A stretch of DNA of 64,000 nt from a virus. The notes beneath the pieces were generated by a model. That model was not told where the DNA came from, did no database searches, and was given only the letters and a program-made list of their open reading frames with translations. Location: IMG/VR virus record IMGVR_UViG_3300027708_000026, positions 32,001 through 96,000 of that record, one strand, 5' to 3'. A program made the position numbers and the translations under genes. Shown here one piece after another: positions 10,201 through 56,000 of this stretch (its first letter is position 1; every line of letters begins with the position of its first letter).

Positions 10201-10712
10201 CCAAAAAACGCCGGTGAAGTCAATGCCGAATTAAAAATTGAGATAAACTGCTGATTCCAATTGGCATTAGTTGAATCATTCCATTGTATAATAGCATTAG
10301 CTAGATTATTACCTGATGCATCAAAAACATTATCAGTAGTCGATATCGCCACAACTTTTAACAACCCGCTGGCAGGTATATTCCTCTTAGGGAAATAACT
10401 GATCAGCTGCGCCAACTGTAGTATGCTATCTCTTCGAGTCGCAGTCTCTAAGAAATTCTCACGGGCATTTAGATCAATACGGAAACTTAAATTTTGGCCT
10501 AAAAATGCAATCAAATCTACCAGTGCGATATATTCGCTGCTATCAACAAAATCATTAAAATCCTCAGGATAGTTTTCTCGGAGGTATGCTATTATGACAC
10601 GCCTTAATGTATCAAAATCATAACTTTGAAATTCTGCATTAGTATACGATTGGTACAGGGTTTTCCAATCTTCTGTCATGAGGATTTTAGAATTTGTTGA
10701 TGGAATAGTCAT
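7266..10712 (-). CDS. Baseplate wedge protein, T4 gp6-like (baseplate J-like), 1148 aa
   Basis: N-terminal DFDTLRR...DFNDF...LIAFLGQNLSFRIDLNARENFLETATRRDSIL and internal ESNASIQANAPKAFYTQNRMITAEDY motifs typical of gp6; next to gp25-like gene. Confidence 0.85.
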   Translation of the reverse strand: MTIPSTNSKILMTEDWKTLYQSYTNAEFQSYDFDTLRRVIIAYLRENYPEDFNDFVDSSEYIALVDLIAFLGQNLSFRIDLNARENFLETATRRDSILQLAQLISYFPKRNIPASGLLKVVAISTTDNVFDASGNNLANAIIQWNDSTNANWNQQFISIFNSALTSPAFFGTPSDQSVVNGILTQQYRINSANTDLATYSFSKSINGIPMNFEVVGATFSGKSFIYEEPPKPGNQFSVIYQNDNQGNASQNTGFFCHFKQGATGVSYFEINNPVPNEIIGVNVNSINDTDLWLWQLGLDNSHTHMWTQVPSTTGNNVIYNSLNSDIRKFYSVSTQNNDAINLNFSDGNFGDLPQGRFALYYRQSNGLSYIVKPENLSGITVNIPYVNSSGVGQVLTLTLSLQYTVNNSSGPESNASIQANAPKAFYTQNRMITAEDYNIAPLSIGSEILKVKSTARVTSGVSKYFDLSDVSGKYSKTNIFADDGIVYKNSNEQNFIFSFLSQSDIYNVIRTKLEPIIASTSLRSFYIDQYHRPDLNSLSATWVQVNKLGGQSQGYFSINNTPVAVGSFSSNNLSFVKSGALIKFVPPTDKYFLPNGTIVSNKSNKTRNYIWSTVITVISDGSNNGAGALSNGKGPITMANVLGSDAIPVEIIPVFASSLSNSFETELVNLCLVQRNFGLSFDATTRIWNVIADSNLDLKNPFSLDYQNNVDDANRDASWLIAFTWTGTGYLVRYRLIDYIFESENQTGFFVDKNSINYDFASATIVKDQITVLSVNTLNTTTSMSLDNDYLWQIDNSIVQPDGYIEPKKVKISFYDFNNAGQILDPDTFNNIVLGNTINSVTGYLDKFVYFQLQSDSLTYKLVDSEMFMAYPTPAAANKAIDNGVISPSDGDLFYFYNPEYNVVNSYSTAIANLNTPWVYGPAESTYIGYPGRSNLKFQYLHNSGQETRIDPGKSNIIDVYLLTSGYDISFRNWVLNGAVEIYKPLPLTSANLENNYASYLEPIKAISDQMIFQSAKYKLLFGSAADINLQATFKAVQSPTSTASSHDITTKILNAINTFFSLENWDFGQSFYFSELSAYVMNILTPDITNFLIVPVNPKINFGSFYEISCQTNEIFISCAQALDIQVIGSVTSTQLNTKSIITSSGN

Positions 10713-10730
10713 ATGATTTGCTCTATAGCG

Positions 10731-10737
10731 TATTTAT
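10731..10737 (-). promoter_or_regulatory. T4-type late promoter (ATAAATA) for gp6-like gene
   Basis: TATTTAT on + strand, 18 nt upstream of the start at 10712; T4 gp55 consensus is TATAAATA. Confidence 0.6.
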
Positions 10738-10758
10738 TGTAAGGATAAAGTACACATA

Positions 10759-11196
10759 TTATTGTGCAGTCAATCCCTTTTGCTGATCGAATGTCATCAA
10801 CAAATTAGCAGATTGATTACTGGCAGTGGCCACTAATGTGAGTTCAATCATATATCCCTGATCATACTCCCTAACGTTGATTTGACTTGGATGTATCCTA
10901 GGATCACTCTTACATATCTTAAGTATGTCCTCTTGAATTAACTGACGCGTGGCCTCAGTCAAGGGCTCAAACATTAGCGCCCAAATAGCACTGCCAAAAG
11001 TTGGATTCATAACCCGCTCGCCAGGTTTTGTGTTGAAATAATTGATAAGATCCTGCTTGATCAATTCAAAATCATATAGTTTATTGCCCGGGGTTTTAGA
11101 ATTTACTGTGCTAAATCCCACATAGAACTGAGTCTTTTTTTGTATTCCAGCGGCTGCTGGCGAGCTGTTGGAGATTGTGATATTCTTGTAGGGCAT
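10759..11196 (-). CDS. Baseplate wedge protein, gp25/GPW family
   Basis: LIKQDLINYFNTKPGERVMNPTFGS...LMFEP...DPRI motif of gp25 family; 145 aa. Confidence 0.9.
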   Translation of the reverse strand: MPYKNITISNSSPAAAGIQKKTQFYVGFSTVNSKTPGNKLYDFELIKQDLINYFNTKPGERVMNPTFGSAIWALMFEPLTEATRQLIQEDILKICKSDPRIHPSQINVREYDQGYMIELTLVATASNQSANLLMTFDQQKGLTAQ

Positions 11197-21882: not shown

Positions 21883-22320
21883 GCTCAGTTAATCGGTCAC
21901 AAGGCTCGCACCTGCTAATTTCGGGTGCCCGTATACCTGGATCTCGGATCACAGGGAGGGAAATCTCTTGCCGATAGGAGTACTCAACCACTATCCTTTA
22001 CAGGACGAGGATCGCAAATCTGCCGCGGTTTGGTTGTTTTAACAGTTTTAGGCAAAAGGAGGGGTAGTTGCCCCAAGTTTGCTAGCATGTTAGCGTATGT
22101 TAGTAAGCCGCCGTCATATAAAGACTGAGCTCGAGGTACCGGATGACCGCCTCTGTAACGCTCTAACGCTAAGTGACATGTGTTCGACTCGGATAATGTT
22201 TTTTACTTTGCCCGCTAGGGCAAAGTGTGACTGAACGATCTGGATAATATTAATTTCGTCTTCGACGAAGTAAGTGCTTCAAGCGACAGCGCCGAAGCAA
22301 ATGAGCTTTAGCTCATTTCA
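21883..22320 (+). ncRNA. Putative large structured non-coding RNA (~440 nt), family unknown
   Basis: Longest intergenic gap of the window, with >10 helices incl. G-U pairs, a GAAA tetraloop, long-range helices and a 7-bp pseudoknot (details in findings); strand inferred from G-U pairs, GNRA loop and context. Confidence 0.7.
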
Positions 22321-31996: not shown

Positions 31997-32014
31997 TTAA
32001 TCAAGGAGACATAA

Positions 32015-33187
32015 ATGTCACAACTATTAAATGAAAGATGGTCAGAGACCAAAGAAGCTCTGCTTGAAGGCCTACAAGGTACCCGTCGTAGTTCTATGCA
32101 GGTTTGCTTAGAAAATACACGTAGGTATTTGGCTGAAAGCGCAACAGCTGGTGCAACCAGCTCTGGAAACATTGCTACACTAAACCGTGTGATTCTTCCA
32201 GTTATCCGTCGTGTTATGCCAACCGTTATCGCTAACGAAATCATCGGTGTTCAACCAATGACTGGCCCAGTAGCACAAATTCACACTCTACGTGTTCGCT
32301 ATGCTGATTCTTCAACTGAAGTCACAGCTGGTGAAGAGGCACTAAGTCCATTCAAGATTGCTAGCGCATACTCTGGTAATGATGGTTCACCTGCTAAAGC
32401 TGCTGTAACAAGCCAGCTAGAAGGTCAACCAGGCAAGCGTATGTCCATTCAAATCTTGAAGACACCAGTCGAAGCTAAGTCTCGTAAACTAAGCGCTCGC
32501 TGGACGTTTGAAGCTGCTCAAGATGCACAAGCCCAACAAGGTATTGACATCGAAGCAGAAATCATGGCTGCACTAGCACAAGAAATCACAACTGAAATCG
32601 ACCAAGAAATCCTAGGAAGCCTACGCTCACTAGCCAACGTCGAACAGACATATGACCAGTCTCTAGTATCTGGTACTGCTACATTCGTAGGTGACGAGCA
32701 CGCTGCTCTAGCGATTCTAATCAATCGTACAGCTAACTTGATCGCTCAACGTACACGTCGCGGTGCAGCTAACTGGGCTGTTATCTCTAACCAAGCACTG
32801 ACAATTCTACAATCTGCTACTACCAGCGCTTTTGCTCGTACAACAGAAGGTACATTTGAAGCTCCTACAAACACCAAGTTTGTTGGTACATTGAATGGCG
32901 CTATGCGTGTTTATGTTGACGCTTATCTAAGTGATGCAAGCGATGCAAACCAAGTTCTAGTTGGATACAAAGGTTCTAGCGAAGCAGATGCTGCTGCGTT
33001 CTATTGCCCATACATTCCTCTAATGAGCTCTGGTGTTGTTCTAGATCCAGCAACCTTCGAGCCAGTCGTTGGCTTCTTGACACGCTACGGCTATGTTGAG
33101 TTGACCAATGCAGCTAGCTCACTAGGTAACGCTGCTGACTATCTAGGCCGTGTTGCTATCACTAGCGCAAACGTTTCCTTCCAATAA
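32015..33187 (+). CDS. Major capsid protein, T4 gp23-like, 390 aa
   Basis: VIRRVMPTVIANEIIGVQPMTGPVAQIHTLRVRY, VEAKSRKLSARWTFEAAQD, AFYCPYIPL, TRYG. Confidence 0.97.
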   Translation: MSQLLNERWSETKEALLEGLQGTRRSSMQVCLENTRRYLAESATAGATSSGNIATLNRVILPVIRRVMPTVIANEIIGVQPMTGPVAQIHTLRVRYADSSTEVTAGEEALSPFKIASAYSGNDGSPAKAAVTSQLEGQPGKRMSIQILKTPVEAKSRKLSARWTFEAAQDAQAQQGIDIEAEIMAALAQEITTEIDQEILGSLRSLANVEQTYDQSLVSGTATFVGDEHAALAILINRTANLIAQRTRRGAANWAVISNQALTILQSATTSAFARTTEGTFEAPTNTKFVGTLNGAMRVYVDAYLSDASDANQVLVGYKGSSEADAAAFYCPYIPLMSSGVVLDPATFEPVVGFLTRYGYVELTNAASSLGNAADYLGRVAITSANVSFQ

Positions 33188-33260: not shown

Positions 33261-33319
33261 AGCTTGCATTGGGCAAGTTTTATGCAGAAATCCAACTGCG
33301 TACGGCCTAGAACGCCGTG
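33261..33319 (+). promoter_or_regulatory. Structured 5' leader, three adjacent hairpins (putative cis-regulatory RNA)
   Basis: agcttgc/gcaagtt, tatgcag/ctgcgta, tacggc/gccgtg. Confidence 0.55.
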
Positions 33320-33343
33320 TTTACTTATTTTAGGAGAAACAAA

Positions 33344-34255
33344 ATGGGACGTCCAATTAAAAAGAAATTCTTTGGTAGTTTAACTACCCCTTACCAAAAT
33401 CATGCTACTGGCGGCAAAACTGGCGTTGGTGGTGAAGGTGTAGCATCAGTCACTATTTCAAACAGCGGTACATTTTATTCACAAGGCGCAGCCGTAACAT
33501 TTGGAGCACCAAATATTACTGGCGGCATCCGTGCAACTGGTACACCAATCGTGGGTACAGGCATCAATGTTGGTAAAATCATGGGATTCAATATCACTAA
33601 TGCTGGTTCTGGTTATACAGGAACTGTTAGCATATCTGTTACCACTGCAACCGGTGTTACAAGTGCAACAACAGGTACAAGCGGCGCTCAATCAGTTTAT
33701 CCAGCAACTACTACCGGCATTCAAGTTGGTATGCAAGTGTTTGGTGCTAACATCAGTGCAAGTGCTACATATGTCACTAGCATTTCAGGTAGCGTAGTCA
33801 ACATAACATGGCCAAATGCAGGAACAGTTAGTACCAGCGTTTTATTCCGTGATGTAGGTGCAAGTTTCGCAAGCTCAGCAGTTGGGTTAACTAGTAATCG
33901 TCAAGATGCAATCACTATCGTTTCTTACTTGTCAACAGCTAGTCAATCACGTAGCGGCGGCGATATTATGAAACAAGAATCTAGCCGTAGATATCTAGTT
34001 CAAAATTCTGATGGTAAAGGTATTTGTACATTGAGTACTGGTACACTGACAGCAGGTAAAATGCATATTATTGCTACAGACTTTGGCGGTGCAACTTATT
34101 ATGTAACCAAGCTAACTGCTCATAAAGCCACTGTTGCTAACAGAACCAGCACTAGTACAGCTTATCTATCCACTGGTAGAGTCGCTAAGTGGACGCTTGG
34201 CGCTGCAACTGGTACAGGTGTCAACACCGTGATCAGTCTAGCTCATACTATCTAA
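33344..34255 (+). CDS. Virion structural protein following the capsid gene (possible decoration protein); start reassigned from 33317 to 33344
   Basis: AGGAG SD then MGRPIKKKFFG; T/G/S-rich beta-type sequence; own promoter and terminator. Confidence 0.7.
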   Translation: MGRPIKKKFFGSLTTPYQNHATGGKTGVGGEGVASVTISNSGTFYSQGAAVTFGAPNITGGIRATGTPIVGTGINVGKIMGFNITNAGSGYTGTVSISVTTATGVTSATTGTSGAQSVYPATTTGIQVGMQVFGANISASATYVTSISGSVVNITWPNAGTVSTSVLFRDVGASFASSAVGLTSNRQDAITIVSYLSTASQSRSGGDIMKQESSRRYLVQNSDGKGICTLSTGTLTAGKMHIIATDFGGATYYVTKLTAHKATVANRTSTSTAYLSTGRVAKWTLGAATGTGVNTVISLAHTI

Positions 34256-34897: not shown

Positions 34898-37800
34898 ATG
34901 GCTACTATCACAGTATCAGGAACAAGATCACAAACTCCCGGCGGTCCAAGTGCAGTATCAGCGCCTACTGGTAGCATCAACTTAAATTCCACGATTACTA
35001 ATGTTTCCGGGCAATTGAATGTTGGCAGCAATTCGACTATAGGCGGAAGTTCATCAGTTGGTGGAAATTTTTATGTCACCGGTAGCAGTTCCTTAACAAA
35101 TCAAGTTGTTATATCGAGTACACTTAGTTCAGTTAGTACTACCACAGGTGCATTGGTAGTTGGTGGTGGAGTTGGAATTGGACAGAATTTAAATGTTGGT
35201 GGTAATGCAGTAATAACAGGTACTGTAGTAGTTTACAATAATGTATCTATCACAGGAACTATCGCAGTTCTAGGAAGTACTACAACTGTCATTATCAACG
35301 CAAATGATAATAATGTAGGTAACCCATTAGGTGTTGAATACACCACTACAAATGTTTATGGAACTATCGATCAAAGATTAAAAGGTGCAGTATATGTTGG
35401 TGGTGGTGTTGGTATTGAAAAAGATTTGAATGTTGGCGGATACATCTATGGTCGAGTAGCCAAATCAGATCAAACTGCTCAAACACTAGTCACATCTACT
35501 AATGTAGACGAAGTATTTTATCCTACATTCGTTAACAAATTAGGTATTAGTACAGCAACATTTAGCTATACTTATATTGATAACATAAACACCGGCACCG
35601 GAGGTACTACTAGTACTGGTGGGTTAACATATAATCCTTATTCTGGATTATTGACAACATTTAATGCAAATATATCTGGCCCACAAAATAGTGTCAGTAC
35701 TGAAACCGGAGCACTTACCGTAGCCGGCGGTGTCGGTATTGCTAAAGATACTCACATTGGTGGCAAGGCCTATGTCGCTGAACTAATTACCAATTTAATA
35801 TCTAGCCAAACCGGTCCAATAGCTATCAAACCTGAAGGTGGTGAGACTGATATCTATGGTGAAATTAATGTTCGCGGCGGCAAAAAGCCTCTTGGAACTG
35901 CACCGGTTGTTACAAATACATTGTACGTAACTATGGACGGGGATGACACCAATGACGGTCGTGCCCAAGATCCAAGCCGGGCTTGTCGTACAATCGGCGG
36001 AGCAATGAAAAGCTCGTACTACCAACCTGGCACACAAATTAGAGTAAGCGCCGGTCATTATTTTGAAGATAATCCATTACCGATGAAACCATATACATCG
36101 GTAATGGGTAGTGATATTCGTACGACAGAGATTGAGCCAATTAATAAAACTCAAGACTTGTTTCATGTTAATTCTGGATGCTACCTAGCGTTCATGCAAT
36201 TCTGTCAAGGACGTAGCGGATTGCTTCCTGGTGATTATTATACATCAGATACTAATAGGGGAGCATATGCCACAGCATTCCCGCCCCAAACTGGTGACAA
36301 TAGAATTGATTTATTCCATAGCCCATACATTCAAAACTGTACAAATTTAAGCGGCCCGTGGTTAAAAGATGGTAGTTTGTTTCAACCCAATGGGACTGTT
36401 CAAATTCCTATCGTAGTGGGAACTGCTACTTGGGTTGCGAATACATCAAGCATGTTAGTCACATTGAATACTAGCCTAAGTACTAGTACAGTATTACAGG
36501 GAATGAGTGTTAATCAAGGACAACAAAACTTAGGATTTTTTAACGCACGTTCTTTATTGTTAGCAAATAAGCCATTCTTGCAATCACAAGTAGTCAGCTT
36601 TGTTGATCAAACTTTCAATAGTGGAAGTTTTGTTTACAACGCTGCCAGTTGCAGAAGAGATCTTGCGTTAATAGTTGATAGTGTTGCATTGGATTTAATT
36701 TATAATACTACCAGCGAAAGTATCTTTGCCGGTTTACAATATTGGAATCAAAATGGTTATACCGGTAGTATACTAAATCAATTAACAACTACGACCGCAG
36801 CAATATCACATGTAAGATCTTTAGCCTATAGTGTGGTCAATGCAATTGACGGTGCTTCGGCACTGATTGTGGATGCGGATTTTCAAGTTATATTAGATAT
36901 AATAAACAACGGAACTGCCGGTGTTTCTAACATCATTGTTACAAATGGTGAGAAAACTGCCAATACAACATTGTTAAATTGTTACAATGCATTGATTGCT
37001 GCAAAGCCTACGATTGCTAGTCAAACTGTAGCATGGATTACAGCAAACAATCCAACTTTTACATTTAATACTTCGACATGCTATCGAGATATTCAATACA
37101 TGATTGACAGTGTGGCATTTGATTTAAGCCACCCTAATAATATCAGCGGGGCACCAAGTAATAAACAAGCAGTTAAGTCAGGTGTATATTATTACAATTT
37201 TGATTCAACGTCTACGGCTGTGCCCAACGAAGTTCCACAAGTTGTGTCAGCTTACAATTATCTAAGATCTATAATACCAAATATTGTCACTGGTGTCGAA
37301 CTACCTAAAAAATACAGCTTATCAACACAAAGCACTACTGGATATACATCGGCAACAATTTACGAATCTGGATTGATACAAGACAAACTAGATCTAATCA
37401 CTAACATTATTAGAAATGGTCCAAGTGCAGTTTCTGATAAAATTCCAATGCCACTAACTCAGAGTGGGAACATTGTATTACTTAATGCCTATAGATTATT
37501 AGAGGCGAACATAACATTCTTACAAGATGAAATTATAGCATATATTGATAGTCAGTTTAATAATTTTGATTATAACAGGCAAATTTGTTACAGGGATGTT
37601 GGCATTTTAGTAGAGAATGTCTCTTACGATGCAACATTTGGCGGTAACGAAAAATCTATTGAAGCAGGCCTGGCATATTGGAACGGTGCTATCAGCAAAA
37701 TATCTGGACAAGAAACACAGACCATAAGTGCTATTGATTATCTAAATAGCCTATGTCAACGAGTCATCACTAATACTACATGTACTGTACTGTCTCCAGT

Positions 37801-40800
37801 TGTAGGTATCAAACCAGGTGTGCAGGTAATAAACACTGTGTTGATAGGTGGAGAAGTTTCTAGTACAAGTATTGGCAATCTGTTTAATATTATCACTAGA
37901 CTCATACAAACTGGTAGCGGAGATGAATTCATCAAACAAGGTAGCTCTGCAATTGATGCAGCATATCTAAGTGCTGAAGTACTAATGCAGGCCAACAGGG
38001 CATTTATACAAGAAGACACAATCAATTGGATCAATAACAATTACCAAACTTTTCCTTACAATGCTATCAAGTGCAAGAGGGATACTGGCGTAATTATTGA
38101 TTCTGTTGTCACAGATTTATTATTTCCCACACCTGAATACAGTCAAAGCACATTCGCAGGTTTACAATATTACATACAGAGCAATTTGGTCGGGGCAGTC
38201 CCAGATCAATATCATCAAACAGTACAAGCAGTTGAGTACCTAAAAGAATTAAGTGCCAAGGTTATACAAAATATCACACCAGCTGACGATTTAGTCAGCC
38301 GATATCAAACAGCTGAGCCTCAAATTACTAATTTAGAACCAGGAACCTATTCTGATGCTAAAAAAGTTATGGCAAATTATGACATCATACTTGAAATATT
38401 AAACGGTAATATCACTGGCTGGACTGATAAACTTATATTTGGGTTTACTGCTAGTAAATTCTTAAGTGTACAAAATGCTTATGCAGTTTTACAGGCCAAC
38501 GCTACATATTTGGCCAAAGAAGTGGTTGCTTACATTAATGCAACTAACCCAGGTTTTGCTGCTACATATGATAATGCAAAATGTGAAAGAGATGTTGGGT
38601 ATATGAATACCAGTGTTTGTTTCGACTTGCTATACGGCGGAAATAAACAAAGTATCCAGTCGGGATTAAACTACTATGGATATGTAGGAAATATATCTAA
38701 CATCGTTAACGAAACTACTGCTACAATCGCAGCGTTTAATCACCTATCTATCATAGCTTCAGACATCATACAAAATATTTTAATTACGCCACTACAAACA
38801 ACTGTACAGCAAGTAATAACAACAACTACATCAACCGTTGGCGTAGCCAATCTTTTTGCCCGAGCAATTAGTACAGTTACAGATATCATCAGTAATGGAA
38901 CAACAGTTGCAGCTACTAGACTAGTACCTGTTAGCTTAACGAGATCTACAACACCGGCGACATTGGTTGGGGCAGACAATATTTTAGCCAATAAAGACTT
39001 TTTAAAAGCAGAAGTAATCGCCTACATAAATCAAACTTTTGAAGGCCCATCGTCATTCTTCTATGATCAAGAAAAGTGTTATAGAGACACTGGATTAATT
39101 GTCGATGCAGTTAGTCAAGATATACTATTAGGCGGGAATCAAAAGTCTGTTGAGGCAGGACTGTCCTATTGGTCCGCAGGTTATAACTATGTAACTGGAC
39201 AGGAAACTACTACAACCGCAGCAATTAACCATGCACGGGACATTGCATTACAAATTATTGCCAATCAGACAGTTACTCCTCAGCTACAAACTGAAGCAAC
39301 GCAAATCATTAACACTTTCTATGACTATGGTCAGGATTACATGCCACAACAGGCCATAAGACGTAATTTTGGCATCATTACAAATATAATTGAAAAAGGT
39401 CCGTTATATGCTCCGTCTATATATCCAGGCAGCGCACTGGCTAATACGACTGGATTAAATGCTCTAGATGTTCAAATTGCTCCGTTGGTTACAAGTGTAA
39501 AATTAGTAAACACTGCAACAAACACCTACCTAATTGGATTAGATATTGTCACTGTTGGATTTGCCAATAATGCTACTTTATATTTTGGTGATAGTTCTAT
39601 ATACCCAATGCAAGATTATCAAGTTGAAGAACTTTCTTTAGAATATACCGGAAATGCTAACACATGGGATATGCGTAAAGTTGATTCTATTGGCGGTATG
39701 GGAGGCAGTTTAGTTGATGGTGCTGTTATATCTGAACGTAGTCCGATCAATTCTTTTGTTTACGATGCATATACTCAGCTGACCCAGGGCGGGCGCGGAG
39801 TACGTATTACTAATAATGGTTATGCACAGTTAGTTTCTGTATTCACAATTTTCTCAAGTGTTGGTGTACAAGTTGATAATGGCGGCATTGCTAGTATTGT
39901 TAACAGTAATGCCAATTTTGGTGATCTGTGCCTAGTTGCTAAAGGTTATGGTACCAGAAAGTTCAGCGGTACCGTTTACAATCCTAAATTTAAAGCATAT
40001 CCAGATAGCCCGGGAGTTAACGGATATAATCAATATTATCCAAATGGATTCTGGCCAAACAATGCCCGAGTAGAAATTTTTGTTCCTGATTTAGATAATA
40101 GACCACACATCAGTTTGGTAATGGAAGTTGTACCAGATGAAGGTCATATCAATGAGCAAGGGTTCCCCGGGTTCTTAACAGCCCAGCCCAATCTTGCTAC
40201 ATTAACAACTGGATCTATTACGATTACTGGTATCGATACAGCTGGAATTTCTATAGGAAACTTTGTATATATTAGAGATCAATTTGCATCTACATTTGAT
40301 AAGTTTCAGTATGTACATGATCAAATTGGAAATTATTTAGATATAAATGGTAATATCACTACAGACCCCGCCCAATATATCGTCAATGCTAACTATGGAA
40401 TACCATATATTGCCACTGGGACATATGTTACGAATGTTAGTTATGCATCTGTCACATTAAACTATGCATTGCCAACTGGCGGCGGATTCCCTGGTAATGA
40501 TAATTATTTCACATTCTATTTCTGCGGTAACGCCTATTATACTGTATTAAGCAGCACAGTTGCTAACAATCCAAAAACTCCTAATACTAATATTATCGGA
40601 AGTGCCAACACATCAACTGATCAAGTGGCTGCACATATCGATTCTTTACAATATTTGAATAGTTTAATAGATAAAGTTATTGGAAATGTTACAGTTGCAG
40701 TACAACCACTAAACTCTACTAGCATACAAACTTTCTTACCTTTAGTGGTAGGTGGTGCTAACGCAGCATCGTTTATTGATTTACGATTTGGAGAGATGAC

Positions 40801-41485
40801 TTCTATAATAGGTGCTACTCCTAGCACCTATGCAACCATAGTGCCACCTAAACTGATCAAGAAAACTGGAACAGTTCCTTTGGGATCTGGCAATGCGATA
40901 GAACTAATCAATGCAAACAAAACTTTCCTAGCTGATCAAGTGACAGCATATGTTATGAATGTTTATAGAAATCCAGGAGTGTTTGATTATGATGAGGCTA
41001 AATGCCGACGAGACGTATTCTTAATACTACAAGAACTAATATATGATCTAGAGTCTGGTGGAAATTACCACAGTGTATTCTCAGGTTTAAGTTACTGGTC
41101 TAGGGACGGTACACATCATATCGTACAGATGGGCGAGAACGTAACAAGGAACGATTTATTCCCTGATGGTGCTACTGTTAATTTCTATCAACGTAGTTAC
41201 ATCAGCGCAAGCGGATATGTTTTTGAATATGTGGGAGCAGGCACCAATTATGGAGCATTGCCGCAATTTGGAGTCGCTGATCCGGTACAAGGTAAAGAAG
41301 TTGTACAGTTAGACAACGGAGCGGTGTTCTTTACATCAACAGATCAAAACGGTGACTTCCGTATTGGTCCTGGATTAGTTATCAGTCAAGCAACAGGTGT
41401 TCTAAGCGGTAGAACATTTACCAAGTCGCTGTTTGCCAATATGACACCATTTATATTGGCAATTGAAGGCGGCGGCGGATTTTAA
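34898..41485 (+). CDS. Giant virion structural protein, 2195 aa: fibre-type N-terminus, pectin-lyase-like beta-helix segments, seven CxRD helical repeats
   Basis: STTTGALVVxGGVGIG repeats; LYVTMDGDDTNDG...RTIGGA...IRVSAGHYFEDNP and SPYIQNCT beta-helix motifs; repeats CRRD/CYRD/CYRD/CKRD/CERD/CYRD/CRRD. Confidence 0.8.
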   Translation: MATITVSGTRSQTPGGPSAVSAPTGSINLNSTITNVSGQLNVGSNSTIGGSSSVGGNFYVTGSSSLTNQVVISSTLSSVSTTTGALVVGGGVGIGQNLNVGGNAVITGTVVVYNNVSITGTIAVLGSTTTVIINANDNNVGNPLGVEYTTTNVYGTIDQRLKGAVYVGGGVGIEKDLNVGGYIYGRVAKSDQTAQTLVTSTNVDEVFYPTFVNKLGISTATFSYTYIDNINTGTGGTTSTGGLTYNPYSGLLTTFNANISGPQNSVSTETGALTVAGGVGIAKDTHIGGKAYVAELITNLISSQTGPIAIKPEGGETDIYGEINVRGGKKPLGTAPVVTNTLYVTMDGDDTNDGRAQDPSRACRTIGGAMKSSYYQPGTQIRVSAGHYFEDNPLPMKPYTSVMGSDIRTTEIEPINKTQDLFHVNSGCYLAFMQFCQGRSGLLPGDYYTSDTNRGAYATAFPPQTGDNRIDLFHSPYIQNCTNLSGPWLKDGSLFQPNGTVQIPIVVGTATWVANTSSMLVTLNTSLSTSTVLQGMSVNQGQQNLGFFNARSLLLANKPFLQSQVVSFVDQTFNSGSFVYNAASCRRDLALIVDSVALDLIYNTTSESIFAGLQYWNQNGYTGSILNQLTTTTAAISHVRSLAYSVVNAIDGASALIVDADFQVILDIINNGTAGVSNIIVTNGEKTANTTLLNCYNALIAAKPTIASQTVAWITANNPTFTFNTSTCYRDIQYMIDSVAFDLSHPNNISGAPSNKQAVKSGVYYYNFDSTSTAVPNEVPQVVSAYNYLRSIIPNIVTGVELPKKYSLSTQSTTGYTSATIYESGLIQDKLDLITNIIRNGPSAVSDKIPMPLTQSGNIVLLNAYRLLEANITFLQDEIIAYIDSQFNNFDYNRQICYRDVGILVENVSYDATFGGNEKSIEAGLAYWNGAISKISGQETQTISAIDYLNSLCQRVITNTTCTVLSPVVGIKPGVQVINTVLIGGEVSSTSIGNLFNIITRLIQTGSGDEFIKQGSSAIDAAYLSAEVLMQANRAFIQEDTINWINNNYQTFPYNAIKCKRDTGVIIDSVVTDLLFPTPEYSQSTFAGLQYYIQSNLVGAVPDQYHQTVQAVEYLKELSAKVIQNITPADDLVSRYQTAEPQITNLEPGTYSDAKKVMANYDIILEILNGNITGWTDKLIFGFTASKFLSVQNAYAVLQANATYLAKEVVAYINATNPGFAATYDNAKCERDVGYMNTSVCFDLLYGGNKQSIQSGLNYYGYVGNISNIVNETTATIAAFNHLSIIASDIIQNILITPLQTTVQQVITTTTSTVGVANLFARAISTVTDIISNGTTVAATRLVPVSLTRSTTPATLVGADNILANKDFLKAEVIAYINQTFEGPSSFFYDQEKCYRDTGLIVDAVSQDILLGGNQKSVEAGLSYWSAGYNYVTGQETTTTAAINHARDIALQIIANQTVTPQLQTEATQIINTFYDYGQDYMPQQAIRRNFGIITNIIEKGPLYAPSIYPGSALANTTGLNALDVQIAPLVTSVKLVNTATNTYLIGLDIVTVGFANNATLYFGDSSIYPMQDYQVEELSLEYTGNANTWDMRKVDSIGGMGGSLVDGAVISERSPINSFVYDAYTQLTQGGRGVRITNNGYAQLVSVFTIFSSVGVQVDNGGIASIVNSNANFGDLCLVAKGYGTRKFSGTVYNPKFKAYPDSPGVNGYNQYYPNGFWPNNARVEIFVPDLDNRPHISLVMEVVPDEGHINEQGFPGFLTAQPNLATLTTGSITITGIDTAGISIGNFVYIRDQFASTFDKFQYVHDQIGNYLDINGNITTDPAQYIVNANYGIPYIATGTYVTNVSYASVTLNYALPTGGGFPGNDNYFTFYFCGNAYYTVLSSTVANNPKTPNTNIIGSANTSTDQVAAHIDSLQYLNSLIDKVIGNVTVAVQPLNSTSIQTFLPLVVGGANAASFIDLRFGEMTSIIGATPSTYATIVPPKLIKKTGTVPLGSGNAIELINANKTFLADQVTAYVMNVYRNPGVFDYDEAKCRRDVFLILQELIYDLESGGNYHSVFSGLSYWSRDGTHHIVQMGENVTRNDLFPDGATVNFYQRSYISASGYVFEYVGAGTNYGALPQFGVADPVQGKEVVQLDNGAVFFTSTDQNGDFRIGPGLVISQATGVLSGRTFTKSLFANMTPFILAIEGGGGF

Positions 41486-44797: not shown

Positions 44798-47700
44798 GTG
44801 GCACTAACTCCAGTAAATCAGGATTTTAATGTAAACAACGGACTCGTTGTTTTAGGCACAAGTGCGGTTACAAGTTCAACTGATCAGACTAATGCACTAC
44901 AGGTTAATAGTGGCGCTGCTGTTGCCCAAAATTTAATTGTTGGCACTGACGGAAAAATTTACGGAAATTTTGAAGTAGTTGGTACTACCACACTAGGCAA
45001 TACAGTTCTTAGTACATCTACTGTCAGCGGTGATTTAACTGTGACAGGCGAGATAATTGCAACACGATTAACAATACAATACACTACAGTTACTACCGCA
45101 TTAGTCACTACTGATGATATAATATCAACTTATAACACTACATCATCTACTGGTACGACTACCGGCGCATTGGTCATTGCCGGCGGTGTGGGCATTGGCA
45201 AAGATGTATTTGTTGGTGGTAATGTTACTGCTCCTAGATTTTTAGGAACTGCTACTACAGCAAAAAATTTAGAAGGCGGCAGCACCAATAGTATACCATA
45301 TCAATCTACTGCCGGATCTACGGTATTTTTACCTGTTGGTTTAGACGGTACTATACTTGGAGTAGTCGGGCAACAACTGACATGGACTAGCTCTGCAGGT
45401 GCGACAGTCGGCAATGCAAACACTGCAACAAACTTAGCAGGCGGAACCAAAGGAGCAATACCTTATCAATCCGATGTTGGCCAAACAGCTTTTGATGCTT
45501 CTGGATTGAAATATGTCAGCTCGTTGACACAACTAGTAACCAATAATATTTTAGTAACCAGTTCAGCATCTGGAACCACTATTGGTGGCGGGGCAATATC
45601 AGTCACAGGCGGCGCATATTTTGGAAAAGATGTTTACATCGCAGAGACTGGCATGGGTGCATTTACTGTAGCAGGTTATGCGGCTATCGGTAAAAGATTA
45701 ACTATATTAGATTATACAGATGCATCAAGCACTGGCACAGGGGCTTTGATCGTATCTAATGGCGGTGCATACATATCTCAGAATGTATATATTGGTAGTA
45801 CGGTAACTGCTGCCAACGCACGTATTACTTCTTTGGGCAATAATCGGTTAATTTATTCAGATACTTCCGGAAATTTACAAAATACAGTAGTTACCTATAG
45901 CACACAAACGCTACAATTATCTGGAACTATAACCAATGCTCTATATGCAGGTACTGCCACTTACGCGATTACCAGTGCATTTGCGACTACTAGCGGATAC
46001 ACATTATCTTTTAATACTGGCACACTAGTAACAAATGCTCTATATGCAGATACTGCCACTTACTCGATTACCAGTGCATTTGCGACTACTAGCGGATACA
46101 CATTATCTTTTAATACTGGCACACTAGTAACAAATGCATTATATTCAGTCACTGCTACTTATGCAACTATAGCATTGGGGTTTAATACTAATACATTGGT
46201 ATCATCAGCGGTCACAGCATCTTATGCAACAAATGTACTCGGCGGCTCATATGGAAGTGTATTATATCAAACAGCAACTAATCAGACTGCTGCATTACCT
46301 ATAGGCGGCGAAGGTACAATATTAGCGATTGTCAATGGTATATTGGGTTGGGGAAATCCTTCAGGATTTACAGTAAGTACCGCGACTAATTTTAATGGTG
46401 GTCAGGCTGGATCGATACCATTTCAAACGGGCTCTGGACAAACATCATTTGACGATCTAAACTTAAACTTCCATCTTCCTTATACACCAGATGCGATTTT
46501 ATCCGCAAATAAATTAGCAGTAACTAGTACTACAAATAGTATTTCATCAATAACTGGTGCATTAGTAGTATCTGGCGGTGTCGGAGTAAAAGGTGATATC
46601 TATGTAGGCGGTGCTATATATTCTAACGGTCAAGCAGTATTAACTGGCGGGACTGGTACTGGTTTCGTTAGCAACATAGTTGCAGGTACTGGAATAAGTG
46701 TATCCTCATCAACTGGTGCTATCACCATTTCCAATACAGGTGTACTGACGTTAACAGCTGGTACTGACACATCATTGAGTACTTCGACTGGTAATATTAC
46801 AGTATGGAATAATAGCACATTACAGAGTGTAACTTCTAGAGGATCAAGTACCAATAGAATTATTACAATATCTAATAATACCACTGCATCATCTACACAG
46901 TCTGCGGCATTGGTAGTAACTGGCGGAGTTGGTATTGGGCAAAATGTTTATATCGGTGGCAAGATAAATGTTGGTGGAAACATATTGCCAACAACTAGCA
47001 CAGTTAGTTTAGGAACATTAGAAAATCCGTTCGCAGATTTATATTTAGGATCTAATTCTTTAAACATTGATACTGTTAGATTTTCTGGAATTGGATCAAC
47101 ACTAACTATAACAGTAATACCTACTCCACCTACCTATGCTACTATCCCGGCTACATTAAATATTGGGAATATTTTAATTACGGGTGCGACTAATTCAACA
47201 TCAACAAATACTGGATCACTACAGGTTGCTGGTGGCGCCGGTATTGCTAAAGATATTCAGGTTGGCGGCAGTGCGATAATTGCGAATACATTATCTATAT
47301 TCAGCACACTATCTAGCACAACAACTATATTCCAAAATGCGTTATACGTAGCAGGTGGTGTTGGTGTTGGTAAAAACTTACTCGTTACTGGTGAAGCGGT
47401 ATTCCAAAATAATGTAACATTTAACGGCACAACGACCTATGTGTTGAGTACAAATAGTGTTTACACTGACAATATTATTGAGTTACATTATCCTAACACT
47501 CCGGGAAATACATGGACAGTCAATGATAATAATGATATTGGATTACGATTCCATTATTATGATACACAAGATCGAAATGCATTCCTAGGTCGAGATAATG
47601 CCACTGGCTATTTAGAATGGCTAGTTAACGCCGGCCCTGATAATACAGCAAACGTCACAGGTACTAATGGGATATTTAGATTAGGCAGTATTATTTTAAC

Positions 47701-50700
47701 AAATACCACTGCATCAACAAATACAGCTACTGGGGCGCTAACAGTCGTAGGCGGAGTTGGAATAGGCGGAGATTTACAAGTTGGTGGCACGATTTATAGA
47801 AATGGAATATCTGTAGGTTATGGATATACTGGTAGCGTCGGTCCGCAGGGACCTATAGGATATGCAGGAAGTTCCGGTGCAGGTGGTGGCACTGGTTATA
47901 CCGGATCAATCGGCCCACAAGGACCGCAGGGATATTCGGGATCGGTTGGACCACAGGGACCGCAGGGGGTAACAGGCCCGCAAGGACCTCAGGGATATTC
48001 GGGATCGATTGGACCGCAAGGCGCAACTGGATATGCGGGTTCAACTGGCACACAAGGAATTACTGGTTATACTGGTTCAATTGGATCTACTGGTACACAA
48101 GGACCTATAGGATATGCAGGAAGTTCTGGTGCAGGTGGCGGCACTGGTTATACTGGTTCAATTGGATCTACTGGTACACAAGGACCTATTGGATATGCTG
48201 GATCTATTGGCCCACAAGGGCCGCAGGGATATTCTGGATCAGTTGGATCTACTGGTACACAAGGACCTATTGGATATGCTGGATCTATTGGTCCACAGGG
48301 GATACGCGGGTATGATGGAAGCCGCGGGCCGCAAGGGCCACAGGGCGTAACCGGACCACAGGGCCCGGTTGGATACACTGGTTCAATTGGATCCACTGGT
48401 ACCATAGGATATTCTGGATCAGTTGGATCCACTGGTACTATAGGCTATTCGGGTTCAGTTGGCGCACAGGGACCTATCGGATACACTGGATCAGTTGGAT
48501 CTACTGGTACTACAGGTTATGCTGGCTCAGTCGGATCCACTGGTACTATAGGCTATTCGGGTTCAGTTGGATCTACTGGTACTACAGGGTATGCTGGTTC
48601 AATTGGATCCACTGGTACACAAGGACCTATTGGATACGCTGGATCTATTGGCCCACAAGGGCCGCAGGGATATTCTGGATCAGTTGGATCTACTGGTACA
48701 CAGGGACCTATTGGATATGCTGGATCTATTGGATATGCTGGGTCAGTCGGATCCACTGGTACTATAGGCTATTCGGGTTCAGTTGGATCTACTGGTACTA
48801 CGGGGTATGCTGGTTCAGTTGGCTTAACTGGATCGTTTACAGGTACAACTACATCAACAGTTTTTATCAATAACACGACTACATCAGTCAGTACAAATAC
48901 CGGCGCTCTGACCGTAGCAGGTGGTGTTGGCATAGGCGGTGCTGTTTATATTGGGACATCTTCCTATATTGCTGGCGCACAGATCATTACCACTGCCACT
49001 ATTGGAAATTACGCTAGCGGCGGCAGTACTAGTTCAAGTGGTATATCAATATACGATGAAGGTATTCAAATAGCATCGACAGTGACTGCTCTTAACTTTG
49101 TTGGAGACGGCGTTATAGCTACAACTTCAACTGCTGGAGCTATAAAGTTTGTTGGAAATACTCAATGGTTAAGTATTCCATCTGTCGCAGGATTAAATTT
49201 AGGCGATCCTAGTTACCCCGGCGCCCTAGACGGGCCAAACTTTACAATTGAATTTTGGATGTACGCCACTAGTTCTGCTACCGATGTGTACATAATGGAT
49301 AAAGATGGGATTGCAGGCCTATCATATGCTGAATACGGATTTAAGTTATCGACCTTAAGAGTAGTAACATTTTATGTTGGGCATGGTGATAATGCCGGCA
49401 CCCAGTATGGTGGGGAGCAAAATTTCACAGTAGGCACAGTCGCATTGAATACCTGGTATCATGTGGCTGCAACACAATCGGCCACAAATCAAATTAAAAC
49501 ATTCCTTAATGGCACATTAACTGGCACTACTACAAGAAATCAAAGGATGGTTGATGGCGGTAAAGCGTTATTAATAGGCTGGTGTCAAGATCAAGCAACT
49601 AATACTCGATTTACTGGATATCTAACTAACATTCGAATTGTCAAAGGCACAGCACTTTATACGAATACCTTTCCATTGCCCGCCGCCGCACTGACCACAG
49701 TCACAAGCACTGCACTTTTATTAAATGCCGCCAGTCCTGCATCTTTTCTCGCAGATGGTAGCACAAATAACGCCAGCATAACCAACAACGGAACAGTCTC
49801 GTTTGTCAGCAGCTCGCCACTCTTTGCAGGTGTAACAGTTACTATACCAAGTTTTTCAGTATCGAGTGTTTCGTCAAATACACCAAGATATCTAACATTC
49901 GTCTCCACTACCACTGGATCTGCAAGTGCAGAAACAACAGCTACCGGATTATTATATGTTGCAAATAGAGGTATAGCTATTGGCACAAGCACAATAACAG
50001 CATTAGCTGATCCAATGGGATTGGCCGGAGGTTATATTAGGGGCAAAGTTTTAGATCTCTACGGTGGTTTATATATTAGACAAGTGGGCTCTAGCATTAT
50101 TTCGTCAAATTATCTGGGTCAAGGTGTTTACGACAATACCACTTACATTAATGCAGGCGGCACTAACAATAATTTTATTTGGCAGATAAATGGCGGCCAA
50201 AAGATGTACCTATCAAATGCTGGATATTTTGGCATTGGGACATCTCCAATATCCGATTTACATTTACAAGGCTCACAATTTAGACACAATGATGTCAGCG
50301 GGTGGAACACTTATACATTTACTGTATTACCAGGAGTGGTACAACTAGCATCGACTGCCAGTATTTCAATTCAGTCAGCTAATGTTTCCATCACTTCAAC
50401 TGCATCAAGCACCGGTACTACAACAGGAGCATTACAAGTTGTGGGCGGCGTTGGCATTGGTGGAGATTTATATTTTGGTGGAATAATTTCTGGAGGTGGA
50501 GTTAGAACAAGTACTACCACAACTACACCAAATCCTGCAAGCGTAGGAGACGTTTGGTATTATCAAGGCACTGATGTAGTTTATAGATACCAATATGATG
50601 GAACAACCAGTACATGGGTAGATGTAACTGGACCTAATCTCATTGGATTGTATCAATATCAAGGCAATGCTGCATCAACTCCTGCCTATCTATCTGCTGC

Positions 50701-51070
50701 TTCAGGTAATAATTTTATAACACCATCAGTAGCATGGGCAGCAGCAGCACCTGTAGCATTAACTGATGCAGCGACAATACCTGTGGATTTAAGTGCGGGA
50801 ATGAATTTTACCTGCCTGTTAACCAGCGGAGTTGGCACAACAAGAAAGTTAGATAATTTTGTAAATCCTAAACCAGGACAAACTGGATGGATAATGTTTA
50901 CACAGGGTGCAACTGGAAACAATAATGTCACATTTGGTAATAACTGGCATTGGCCTCTAGGAACCACTGGAACATTTTCTACATCAACTGCCAACGCCGT
51001 AGATATTTTATTTTATACAGTTCTAACACCAACATACTATTTAGGTAATATGGCCAATAGGGTGGTATAA
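44798..51070 (+). CDS. Long tail fibre protein, 2090 aa, with collagen-like region and LamG/concanavalin-like domain
   Basis: GTG start; many STxTGALxVxGGVGIG repeats; G-X-Y tract; FTIEFWMY...NTWYHVAAT...[17 protein letters not shown] LamG-like motif. Confidence 0.85.
45935..46137 (+). repeat. 99-bp in-frame tandem repeat (2 copies, 2 mismatches)
   Basis: aatgctctatatgcag at 45935 and 46034; encodes NALYA(G/D)TATY(A/S)[22 protein letters not shown]. Confidence 0.9.
47822..48838 (+). repeat. Collagen-like (G-X-Y)n tract, ~113 triplets
   Basis: 1017 nt of GYT/GYA/GYS/GSI/GSV/GPQ/GST triplets in one register, built from internally duplicated blocks. Confidence 0.95.
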
Positions 51071-53082: not shown

Positions 53083-56000
53083 ATGTCATTCCCAGTAAAC
53101 CCAACCAGTGGACAGATCGCTGTAGTTAATAATATTGTATATTCTTATAACTCTTCAGGTACCGGTTATTGGACTAGAGTAGCAGCAAATACCAGTACAC
53201 TTGCGATCACTGTTGCATCTTTAAACATTGCAAATACATCTAGCAGCACGTCAACTACAACCGGAGCATTGATAGTTTCTGGCGGCGTGGGCATTGGTGG
53301 CGCCGTTTATATCGGAACATCTTCTTATATTGCTGGCGCACAGATCATTACCACTGCTACCATTGGATTGTATGCTGCGGCATCCTCAGCCAGTACTGGT
53401 ACAACTAGCACATTCACTATTTTAAGTACAGCAAATAGTTTTAGTACCACTACAGGCGCATTGCAGGTGCGTGGCGGTGCAGGCATTGGCGGTAACTTAT
53501 ATGTCGGCGGAGCACTAAATGTTGTTGGAGTCAGCACATTAACTGGCAATTTATACACGTCAATCATTTATGATATTGCTGATACAAATTACCAAACATA
53601 TCTATGGCCCACTGATACCAGTAAAATAGTCGGACTTTCAGCCAGGGGATCTGAGGTGGGCACCGGAAATGACACGCAGATTGGTTCTATATCAGTAACT
53701 CGAGGAGCAATTACTGCCGCGAATACTGCAACATTCTATGGGTTGTATAATAGGTCACTCAGTTATGCCGCAGGTATTGGTATAGATTTCAACGGCAATT
53801 TATGGTTTGGTAAAGTATCTGGTGGCGGTTCTGCATCCACTAGACAAAGCAATTTATTTTATAGTGATAATTCCGGCAACGTATATGCAGGCAATTCTTT
53901 TAGATCAAATGTATTTTATGCCAACAACACTGCATACTTTTTAGATTTTGCCACCACTGCTACTAAACATACTATACTATCAAATGCAGTCAGCACTGAT
54001 TTGATTGGCTACGATCCTGCTATAGGAGTTTACATTGGCGGCACTGACAATAGGTACCTAACCAATGGTACGACATCGTCTGGCGGTCCACTATGGGTGA
54101 TGACCGGCACCACTTATAATCTAATACATTCAGGAAATATTTCACAATATGCAGGAGCTTCAAGTACTACAACATTTACTAACCCTGTAATAATTAGATT
54201 AAACACTGTTGATACCATTGGCTCTACAGCTTCTACTCATTTAACATTAATTAACCCCAATACCGGCGCTGCCAGTTCTGGAATTTATTGGAGATTTGCC
54301 AATCAGTCTGAGATACGTGCTAGCCTGCGTGTGAATGACTCTGGCGATATTATACATAATTCTTTGAGCGGGAATTATAGATTCCAGCAAGATTCTGGTT
54401 CAAGTGCAACTAATTTTTTAAATTCTACAACATCATTTATGAGCGTCGATGGCGCAGGAAATGTATCGTTCCCTAAAAATATCACTGCTGCAAAATTAAT
54501 CGACTACGATGATAATACATATTATCTAGATCCTAACTCTACTTCAACTATCAATCAGTTAACAATGAAAGGATTGTTTACAGCCACTGTTGTAGGCACA
54601 GCTAATACCTGGACTGATGTAGTTCTTGCCACTTCAAATCAAGGCGGAACATATATCACTGCCAATAGACCAACTGTAGCCACTGGGGATGTGGGATATA
54701 AATGGTCAACTGGAAACTCTGCAATTTGGACCAATTACATACCAGCAAACGATGCGTATACATTGACATGGGGATTGCTCGGCGTCAAACAGTTCACTAT
54801 GAATAGTGCTGGCAACATGTCAACACAGGTTCAAGGAGCAGCAATAGGGTCTCCTCAATTTTATGATGCCAACAATTCCAGTTACTATATAAAACCTTCG
54901 GGATATTCATACTTAAACTCTTTAAACTTAGGCGGCTTGATCACCGGAATTAGCACAGGTACGGGCATACGTGTATTCAACAACGGTTCAAATAGTTTCA
55001 CCAGCACGGTATTCTGGGGAGTCCCAACGTTAAATTATTATTGGAACTGGCAAACCGACGCCGGCGGCAATGCAGCGTTATGGGGTTATCCATTTAACAA
55101 TACTTCTACAAGAGTATTAACAGTAACTCCATCAGGCAATTGGGGATTCAATCAATCGACATTACCTGGTGATGTTGACATGATCGGCGGTATATCAGTC
55201 ACTGGTACTGGAACTACGCAAGTCAGTGTTATGAAAGGTTCGACGTCCGGATTCTCATTGAGAGTTTCAGATACAGTCTTTGGTGATTTTTCACTTTATG
55301 ATAAGGCCCAGGGTAGTTGGAAATTGGCAATCAATGCGGCCAGGGGATCGGTTGGTGTTAATGCCACTGCCAATGCCGCATATGGATTGAATGTCGGCGG
55401 TGATATTAACATCGGCGGCAACATTTATCAAAACGGATCTGCCCTTACCAACAATGTCAACACTGGCACATTTTCTGCAAATCAATATGCATGGTATGGA
55501 ACTACTGGTGCAGGTGTTAGTCTTACACAAAATAATACATTTGAGACCAGTGCTATTTTTGGTGCGGATCATGTATTGGGTAGCGGATCTTTATATGATT
55601 TATTAGCATGGAATCCACCGAACACCACTGAATATTATAATTTTAATGGATTTACATTTGCATGGATCTCTGATGCAACAGATGTTAAACCTCTGTTCAA
55701 CGGACAAAACTCTCAGATATCAGTCAGTAATAACTATACGCTTACCGGCGCAACTAAACAAGGTGTTAGATTTACTTGGAGTACCTTTAGTAATAGATTC
55801 TGGGATGCATTATTGATCACTGGAAATACCGCAGGTGTAGCCTTAGATGTAACTATAGAAAGTTCTAATGACGGCGGGACAACCATCGTTACTCATGTTA
55901 GTCGAGCATCTATCGGATCTACAGCAGTAAATGGTATGCACTACTTGAGAAATCAAGCAACCAATGCTAGTACTGGACAATGGTTTAGATTGACCATTAG

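Follow-up and report, generated by a model that had tools for sequence, protein, structure and literature searches.

Tandem phycobiliprotein-like domains in a giant tail-fibre-type protein of an uncultured Rak2-like jumbo phage

An analysis of a 64,000-nucleotide stretch of viral DNA (the window; positions 32,001 to 96,000 of the IMG/VR record IMGVR_UViG_3300027708_000026) revealed an open reading frame (ORF) at 34898..41485 on the plus strand, which encoded a giant tail-fibre-type protein of 2195 aa (P0001). Translation of the ORF showed seven C-x-R-D motifs at residues 585, 728, 897, 1059, 1229, 1394, and 2036. Their Cys codons, at 36650, 37079, 37586, 38072, 38582, 39077, and 41003, were exactly those listed in an earlier interpretation made from the letters of the window alone (the sequence-only reading). 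The spacing of 143-170 aa given there also matched among the first six motifs, and the final gap to the seventh was 642 aa. The number of C-x-R-D motifs expected from the residue composition of the protein was 0.019, against seven observed, and no more than two appeared in any of 20,000 shuffles. The protein contained 17 Cys residues, seven of which were within the motifs; the other Cys residues (695, 953, 962, and 1241) had no periodic pattern, and a second, Cys155-like site was not apparent. No C-x-R-D was present in the window's five further giant fibre ORFs. When the seven units were aligned, the pairwise identity was 22-38%, and the invariant residues were A, C, R, D, a second D, G, and Y, so that the C, R, and D of the motif were indeed the same in all seven copies. 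A hidden Markov model (HMM) built from the seven units and scanned against the whole 145-kb record found units in the fibre gene only.

The structure of unit 6 was predicted with AlphaFold2 from a 52-row alignment. The model was all-helical, with a predicted local distance difference test (pLDDT) score of 77.7 and a predicted template modelling (pTM) score of 0.74. A Foldseek search of the PDB with this model returned phycobiliproteins as all of the ~40 best matches, at a probability of 0.99 and a weak E of ~0.1. Alignment of the top Foldseek chains with VIA-align gave a Z of 10.7 and a root-mean-square deviation (rmsd) of 2.5 Å for 111 residues, in which model residues 41-152 were paired with residues 31-148 of the beta subunit. 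In an exhaustive structure alignment against 48,161 PDB representative chains, allophycocyanin ranked first with a Z of 10.3, followed by phycobilisome subunits, phycoerythrin, photocobilin (Z 9.4), and the bilin domain of ApcE (Z 9.3). The heme globin sensors (Z 8.7 and 8.0) and the colicin pore domains (Z 7.7) were placed below the bilin-binding globins. The model and both searches thus gave the globin-like fold that the sequence-only reading had supposed for the repeats.

Sequence comparisons pointed to the same family. A scan of the 24,736 Pfam families returned only PF00502 (Phycobilisome protein) for the fibre protein, at aa 1391-1459, with 16.2 bits (E 0.011) and hence below the 22.2-bit cut-off; the homologues P0003, P0009, and P0012 scored 35 bits, above this cut-off, and PF00502 was present in the precomputed tables for many of the 1239 long homologues. 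The best matches of the seven-repeat profile among the PDB sequences were phycocyanin alpha chains (6jpr_A, E 0.03). For a profile-profile comparison with the phycobilisome family, which the sequence-only reading had proposed, CpcA, CpcB, and related genes were taken from cyanobacterial genomes via a short degenerate motif, and a profile of 52 repeat units was compared in hhalign with 28 aligned CpcA/CpcB-type proteins. The alignment covered 103 columns with an E of 2e-5 and a probability of 77%. Its register placed the K-C-x-R-D-x-G...GG of the repeat on K83-C84-R86-D87-G89...G102-G103 of CpcA, so that the C-x-R-D fell on Cys84, Arg86, and Asp87 of the bilin site, as had been claimed. The same reading had cautioned that the resemblance might be convergent, but homology is favoured because four independent lines gave one family and one register. 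The repeats are very probably homologous to the phycobiliproteins and bilin-binding globins, which makes the six tandem domains and the single C-terminal one divergent members of this superfamily.

The conservation of the site was analyzed in a sample of 1783 units from 121 homologous proteins. The Cys was kept in 1660 of 1681 scored units (98.8%), the Arg in 1672 of 1681, and the Asp in 1680 of 1682; the second Asp, 11 residues further on, was found in 1675 of 1677 and the Tyr in 1643 of 1649, while the overall identity between units was only ~20-35%. The repeats were found in 164 of 50,697 phage records, all of them cyanomyoviruses or marine viruses, which bore out the statement in the sequence-only reading that cyanophage structural proteins carry similar repeats. 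The labels given to the repeat proteins in these records were tail fibre or short tail fibre, structural protein, and gp7. Five KC-x-RD units were present in p091 of S-PM2 and at least two in gp7 of P-HM2, and gp7 of P-HM1 and the “structural protein” of S-ShM2 were also among the cyanophage carriers. Cultured Rak2-like phages in the same set of records had no repeats. The repeat family comprised 1568 clusters at 50% identity, with 6-36 units per protein, and the largest protein had 6382 aa and 36 units. Small hits came from contigs of 0.5-5.6 kb (~1 kb in most cases) that carried pieces of giant genes; a stand-alone single-domain protein of this kind was represented by such gene fragments only, which are silent on a free ancestor. 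The BFVD labels for the matching viral proteins were uncharacterized, tail, or structural. The module was not found under any name in the annotations or literature searched, and that literature yielded no paper on phycobiliprotein-like domains in the virion proteins of phages. A megablast search of the fibre gene against phage genomes gave no match.

The features of the fibre gene and one context gene are collected in Table 1. The partial eighth element lay ~90 aa upstream of the truncated unit 7, and these residues may complete unit 7 in a permuted order; an AlphaFold2 model of the C-terminal 716 aa (5-row alignment) was of low confidence (pLDDT 36) and showed the element as helical. From their sequence, the non-repeat segments flanking the array could belong to a beta-helix/tailspike-like domain, and the array may be nested inside this beta-rich domain.

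Table 1. Positions of the fibre gene, its putative domains, and a context gene in the window
Feature	Position	Strand	Basis
Giant tail-fibre-type, probable virion protein, 2195 aa, P0001	34898..41485	+	ORF, PHROG tail-fibre matches, gene order
Segment before array, aa ~335-540, candidate start of beta-helix/tailspike-like domain	35900..36517	+	Motifs read from sequence; no Pfam match
Phycobiliprotein-like unit 1, aa 542-680, Cys585	36521..36937	+	HMM envelope, motif
Phycobiliprotein-like unit 2, aa 687-822, Cys728	36956..37363	+	HMM envelope, motif
Phycobiliprotein-like unit 3, aa 856-992, Cys897	37463..37873	+	HMM envelope, motif
Phycobiliprotein-like unit 4, aa 1018-1147, Cys1059	37949..38338	+	HMM envelope, motif
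Phycobiliprotein-like unit 5, aa 1186-1320, Cys1229	38453..38857	+	HMM envelope, motif
Phycobiliprotein-like unit 6, aa 1351-1486, Cys1394; modelled unit, PF00502 match aa 1391-1459	38948..39355	+	HMM, Pfam, model
Segment after array, aa ~1500-1903, beta-rich rung-like motifs	39395..40606	+	Sequence reading; phrog_29288 at aa 1579-1688
Partial eighth element, aa 1904-1945, like post-Cys helix only	40607..40732	+	Weak HMM match (E 0.03), model positions 83-123
Phycobiliprotein-like unit 7, aa 1992-2082, Cys2036, truncated after F helix	40871..41143	+	HMM envelope, motif
Conserved C-terminal domain, aa 2086-2190, common to cyanophage fibre proteins	41153..41467	+	phrog_17885, phrog_3442, tblastn
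Major capsid protein (MCP), context gene	32015..33187	+	phrog_138; identity to Rak2-like jumbo phages

The fibre protein matched the tail-fibre families phrog_5342, phrog_17885, and phrog_4527. Its last ~105 aa matched the C-termini of the cyanophage fibre families phrog_17885 and phrog_3442, and tblastn matches to cyanophage fibres extended to aa 2189-2192. The gene was located in a virion block in which portal, protease, and MCP genes preceded the fibre gene and three further fibre genes followed it; baseplate genes were close by, and relatives on contigs of 358-379 kb were syntenic around it. The earlier assignment to the virion therefore stood as far as the tail-fibre families and the gene block are concerned, whereas physical presence in the particle was supported solely by the names under which homologues are deposited, such as “virion structural protein” and “structural protein”. 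Three more giant fibre-type ORFs were located at 1-7263 (-), 44798-51070 (+), and 53083-58959 (+), with sizes of >2421, 2090, and 1958 aa, 2-4 Cys residues each, and no C-x-R-D. The window encodes an unusually elaborate set of fibres, as Rak2-like phages do.

The MCP was 68-70% identical to those of Rak2-like jumbo phages infecting E. coli, Vibrio, and Sinorhizobium, and the source record of 144,907 bp was estimated to be ~41% complete. Searches for psbA and psbD were negative for the record and for four relatives, among them a 92%-complete genome. Contrary to the setting assumed in the sequence-only reading, the phage is not a classic cyanophage. Two Rfam matches were above their gathering scores, namely a Polynucleobacter-1 RNA (RF01718) at 21903-22039 (+) with 113.8 bits and a freshwater-2 RNA (RF02980) at 33262-33346 (+) with 77.6 bits, in the gap between the MCP gene and the next gene; each points towards freshwater as the source. 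The phage is an uncultured freshwater Rak2-like jumbo myovirus with a genome of about 350 kb, and its host seems likelier to be a freshwater Gram-negative heterotroph than a cyanobacterium.

Genes for bilin synthesis were searched in ten relatives sampled by MCP similarity. Repeats were present in eight of the ten, and an FDBR gene (for ferredoxin-dependent bilin reductase) directly preceded by a heme oxygenase gene (hemO) was found in three (G004, G006, and G013). G004, which was 328 kb and 92% complete, carried 18 repeats in a syntenic gene just downstream of the MCP gene, and its hemO and FDBR genes were an overlapping pair. G005 (91% complete) had neither repeats nor the cassette; repeats and FDBR were likewise missing from ten of its relatives, which included a 374-kb genome at 100% completeness. 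Among 13 more large contigs picked for FDBR, 11 carried repeats, and the two exceptions were 30% and 50% complete, so that repeats accompanied FDBR on 14 of 16 large contigs in total. Conversely, FDBR was found in none of the 12 related records free of repeats, including the 91%- and 100%-complete genomes. The co-occurrence with bilin genes that the sequence-only reading had suggested examining was thus seen as a concordant presence and absence of repeats and hemO-FDBR in the lineage, although over few events. The FDBR contigs with an MCP gene belonged to the same lineage, and in the MCP tree the window and G004 fell in one clade with a support of 99/97. A simple co-occurrence statistic (Fisher ~0.05 in 20 MCP-sampled records) was set aside, as the labels change only about twice on this tree.

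In G004 (C1:155000-173000, locus 7641-11166), hemO-FDBR was flanked by genes for Hsp20, ClpS, and the curli-secretion proteins CsgF and CsgG, beyond which were genes for FecR- and PA14-domain proteins; CsgG and CsgF suggest a Gram-negative host. The closest cultured FDBR, with 40% identity, was that of the Pelagibacter phage Mosig, where hemO-FDBR (within MT647606.1 35653-44219) had the neck genes on one side and, on the other, a putative ferrochelatase gene accompanied by four 2OG-Fe(II) oxygenase genes. A further record of this lineage, G014 (IMGVR_UViG_3300032240_001991, 326,658 bp), was rated 36% complete by CheckV, which was odd against the 92% of the 328-kb G004; concatemer formation, a chimeric assembly, or a wrong estimate of completeness may be the reason.

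Taken with these gene associations, the fibre domains have about an even chance of binding a bilin covalently through the conserved Cys, the pigment being supplied by the phage cassette and attached without a lyase. In such a mechanism, the phage hemO-FDBR would turn host heme into a reduced bilin during infection, and a cassette such as that of G004, the closest near-complete relative, would lie outside the 41%-complete record. Self-attachment of the bilin at the conserved Cys would follow, as in the BBAG globins and ApcE, and the assembled fibre would carry a row of chromophores. Autocatalytic attachment is proposed because no T- or S-type lyase gene was found, and the phage cassette is proposed as the source because the host probably makes no such pigment. 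The most likely use would be light sensing or light use at the virion surface, for example in light-gated adsorption, and photoprotection would be a second option. Adsorption of P-HM1 and P-HM2 fails in darkness, and PMC6628666 cites a proposal that light brings about a change in the tail fibres or the receptors. On these grounds, and since both of these phages also carry the domain, light-gated adsorption is an attractive hypothesis. The full version of the idea, in which the virion is a light-responsive pigment particle whose HemO-FDBR bilin attaches itself and whose adsorption is gated by a light-driven change in fibre conformation, and which would explain the light dependence of P-HM2 and S-PM2, seems unlikely as a whole.

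Several results weighed against a bilin-bearing fibre. Arg93 and Tyr97, which are invariant in phycobiliproteins, were not kept in the units, where the position of Arg93 was occupied by Asp or Glu, and Asp13 had no aligned counterpart. In a phycobiliprotein monomer, the interface of the alpha and beta subunits is made up of Asp13 and Arg93. The loss of Arg93 and Tyr97 implied that the units are a distinct subfamily and not antenna subunits. Genes for heme oxygenase, FDBR, and CpeT were absent from the window, as the sequence-only reading had stated, and likewise from the whole 144,907-bp record; in G004 the cassette was ~150 kb from the fibre gene, which is beyond the reach of this record. CpeT (PF06206), one of the phage bilin genes named in that reading, was found neither in the record itself nor in the ten related records and three further repeat-carrying records; a strict tie of the domains to CpeT does not hold in this lineage, and the relevant bilin genes here are the hemO-FDBR cassette found in relatives. 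CpeS (PF09367) was not found in five lineage records; E/F-type lyases were not part of these searches. In the MCP tree, the repeat label needed only two changes and FDBR switched at the same two places, so the co-occurrence rests on few events and possibly on shared ancestry. FDBR was found in only 21 phage records in all, and most of the 164 cyanophage carriers are therefore presumably without it; their hosts make bilins. Mosig carried hemO-FDBR, but no phycobiliprotein-like domain was found in its genome, so the cassette must have another use at least there.

The absence of Arg93, Tyr97, and Asp13 and of CpeT and CpeS, the invariants of the units' own (the second Asp and the Tyr), and the many carriers without bilin synthesis genes would all be in line with a pigment-free module, in which the phycobiliprotein fold would serve as a compact helical spacer and make the fibre longer or stiffer; the number of units, 6-36 per protein, also varied as in spacer repeats. 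The Cys, Arg, and Asp would then be kept for folding or packing, for example by an Arg-Asp helix-capping or salt-bridge network and a small buried Cys. Over such divergence, however, a purely structural Cys should have been replaced by Ala, Ser, or Val, yet it was kept at the level given above; the two residues kept with it were exactly those that hold the bilin in phycobiliproteins, the fibre proteins were otherwise very poor in Cys, and the presence and absence of the repeats agreed with those of hemO-FDBR in the jumbo lineage. A structural role without pigment, the main rival reading, is possible but doubtful. The Cys might also serve other chemistry, such as ligation of heme, another tetrapyrrole, or a metal, non-covalent binding of biliverdin as in photocobilin or BBAG-2, or disulfide or thioether cross-links between chains that lock the fibre. 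The fold family does include heme globin sensors and biliverdin-binding photocobilins (Z 8.0-8.7 and 9.4, respectively), and one Cys per unit at regular spacing would suit the cross-linking of parallel chains. Heme-type globins, however, ranked under the bilin-binding globins, and the relatives carried a bilin reductase besides the heme oxygenase. Photoglobins have CXQD and BBAG-2 lacks CXRD, whereas the full K-C-x-R-D is the covalent-bilin signature of phycobiliproteins and of BBAG-1/3 (PMC10151467); chemistry of this other kind is quite improbable. Convergence or a statistical artefact, in which a helical repeat merely happens to hold C-x-R-D, could draw on the sub-threshold Pfam score of the fibre protein alone, on the 77% probability in hhalign and the Foldseek E of ~0.1, and on the middling Z-scores that are common for helical folds. 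Against it, the independent lines agreed on both the family and the register, PF00502 was the sole match in the whole of Pfam, and bilin-binding globins were at the top of the exhaustive PDB scan, which together make such an origin hardly credible.

With as many as dozens of intact attachment sites in one virion protein, the fibre is a concrete candidate acceptor for the phage bilin genes (hemO with pcyX, pcyA, or pebS). The question of what these genes are for is sharpest in phages of hosts without phycobilisomes, and a pigmented virion would give them their missing acceptor even in non-photosynthetic hosts. The link between the cassette and a virion acceptor is a new hypothesis. It would also bear on the light-only adsorption of some cyanomyoviruses, as P-HM1, P-HM2, and S-PM2 carry the domain in fibre or baseplate proteins. 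Should the domains be free of pigment, they would still show clearly that a fold of the photosynthetic antenna has been taken over for building phage fibres. New here are a carrier outside the cyanophages, for which searches for CpeT and CpeS lyases and for photosystem genes were negative, and a module that tracks hemO-FDBR in its lineage.

Compared with the light-harvesting phycobiliproteins (CpcA/B, ApcA/B, and CpeA/B; PF00502), the units had a similar globin-like core (Z 10.3-10.7 and rmsd 2.5-2.8 Å over ~110 residues), a similar size of ~140-170 aa, and the K-C-x-R-D-x-G...GG signature on helix E, where phycobiliproteins bear the Cys82/84 chromophore. The phycobiliproteins are free subunits of 160-175 aa, whereas here seven domains, and elsewhere up to 36, were part of a fibre protein encoded by a virus without photosystem genes, and genes for T/S-type lyases were not found. 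The bilin domain of ApcE was also similar, as shown by its match to the unit model at the Z of 9.3. BBAG-1/3 are CXRD-type globins that attach bilin without a lyase (Rockwell et al. 2023, PMC10151467). Like the fibre domains, the BBAGs are paralogues of phycobiliproteins outside the antenna, and the BBAG-1/3 types share the CXRD. BBAGs occur in genomes of non-photosynthetic organisms that encode heme oxygenase and FDBR, a pair seen here in relatives and not in the 41%-complete record; as far as a comparison by description goes, they differ in being single-domain, cytoplasmic, and encoded beside heme oxygenase and FDBR, whereas here the domains formed a virion array and the cassette of the relatives was ~150 kb away. 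The units in cyanophage fibre and baseplate proteins (p091 of S-PM2, gp7 of P-HM1 and P-HM2, and the protein of S-ShM2) shared both the KC-x-RD domain and the conserved C-terminal domain with the fibre protein; in contrast to the Rak2-like phage of the window, which lacks psbA, these phages infect bilin-rich cyanobacteria and carry psbA. Cultured Rak2-like phages infect Proteobacteria and are without the domain. In the part of PMC11480375 that treats the phage hemO-pcyX and hemO-pcyA cassettes, these are described, after Ledermann et al., as auxiliary metabolic sets of unexplained purpose; the purpose is posed there as an open question, and interaction with a BBAG-type globin is mentioned only as a possibility. 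The relatives of the window's phage carried the same overlapping hemO-FDBR pair as these cassettes.

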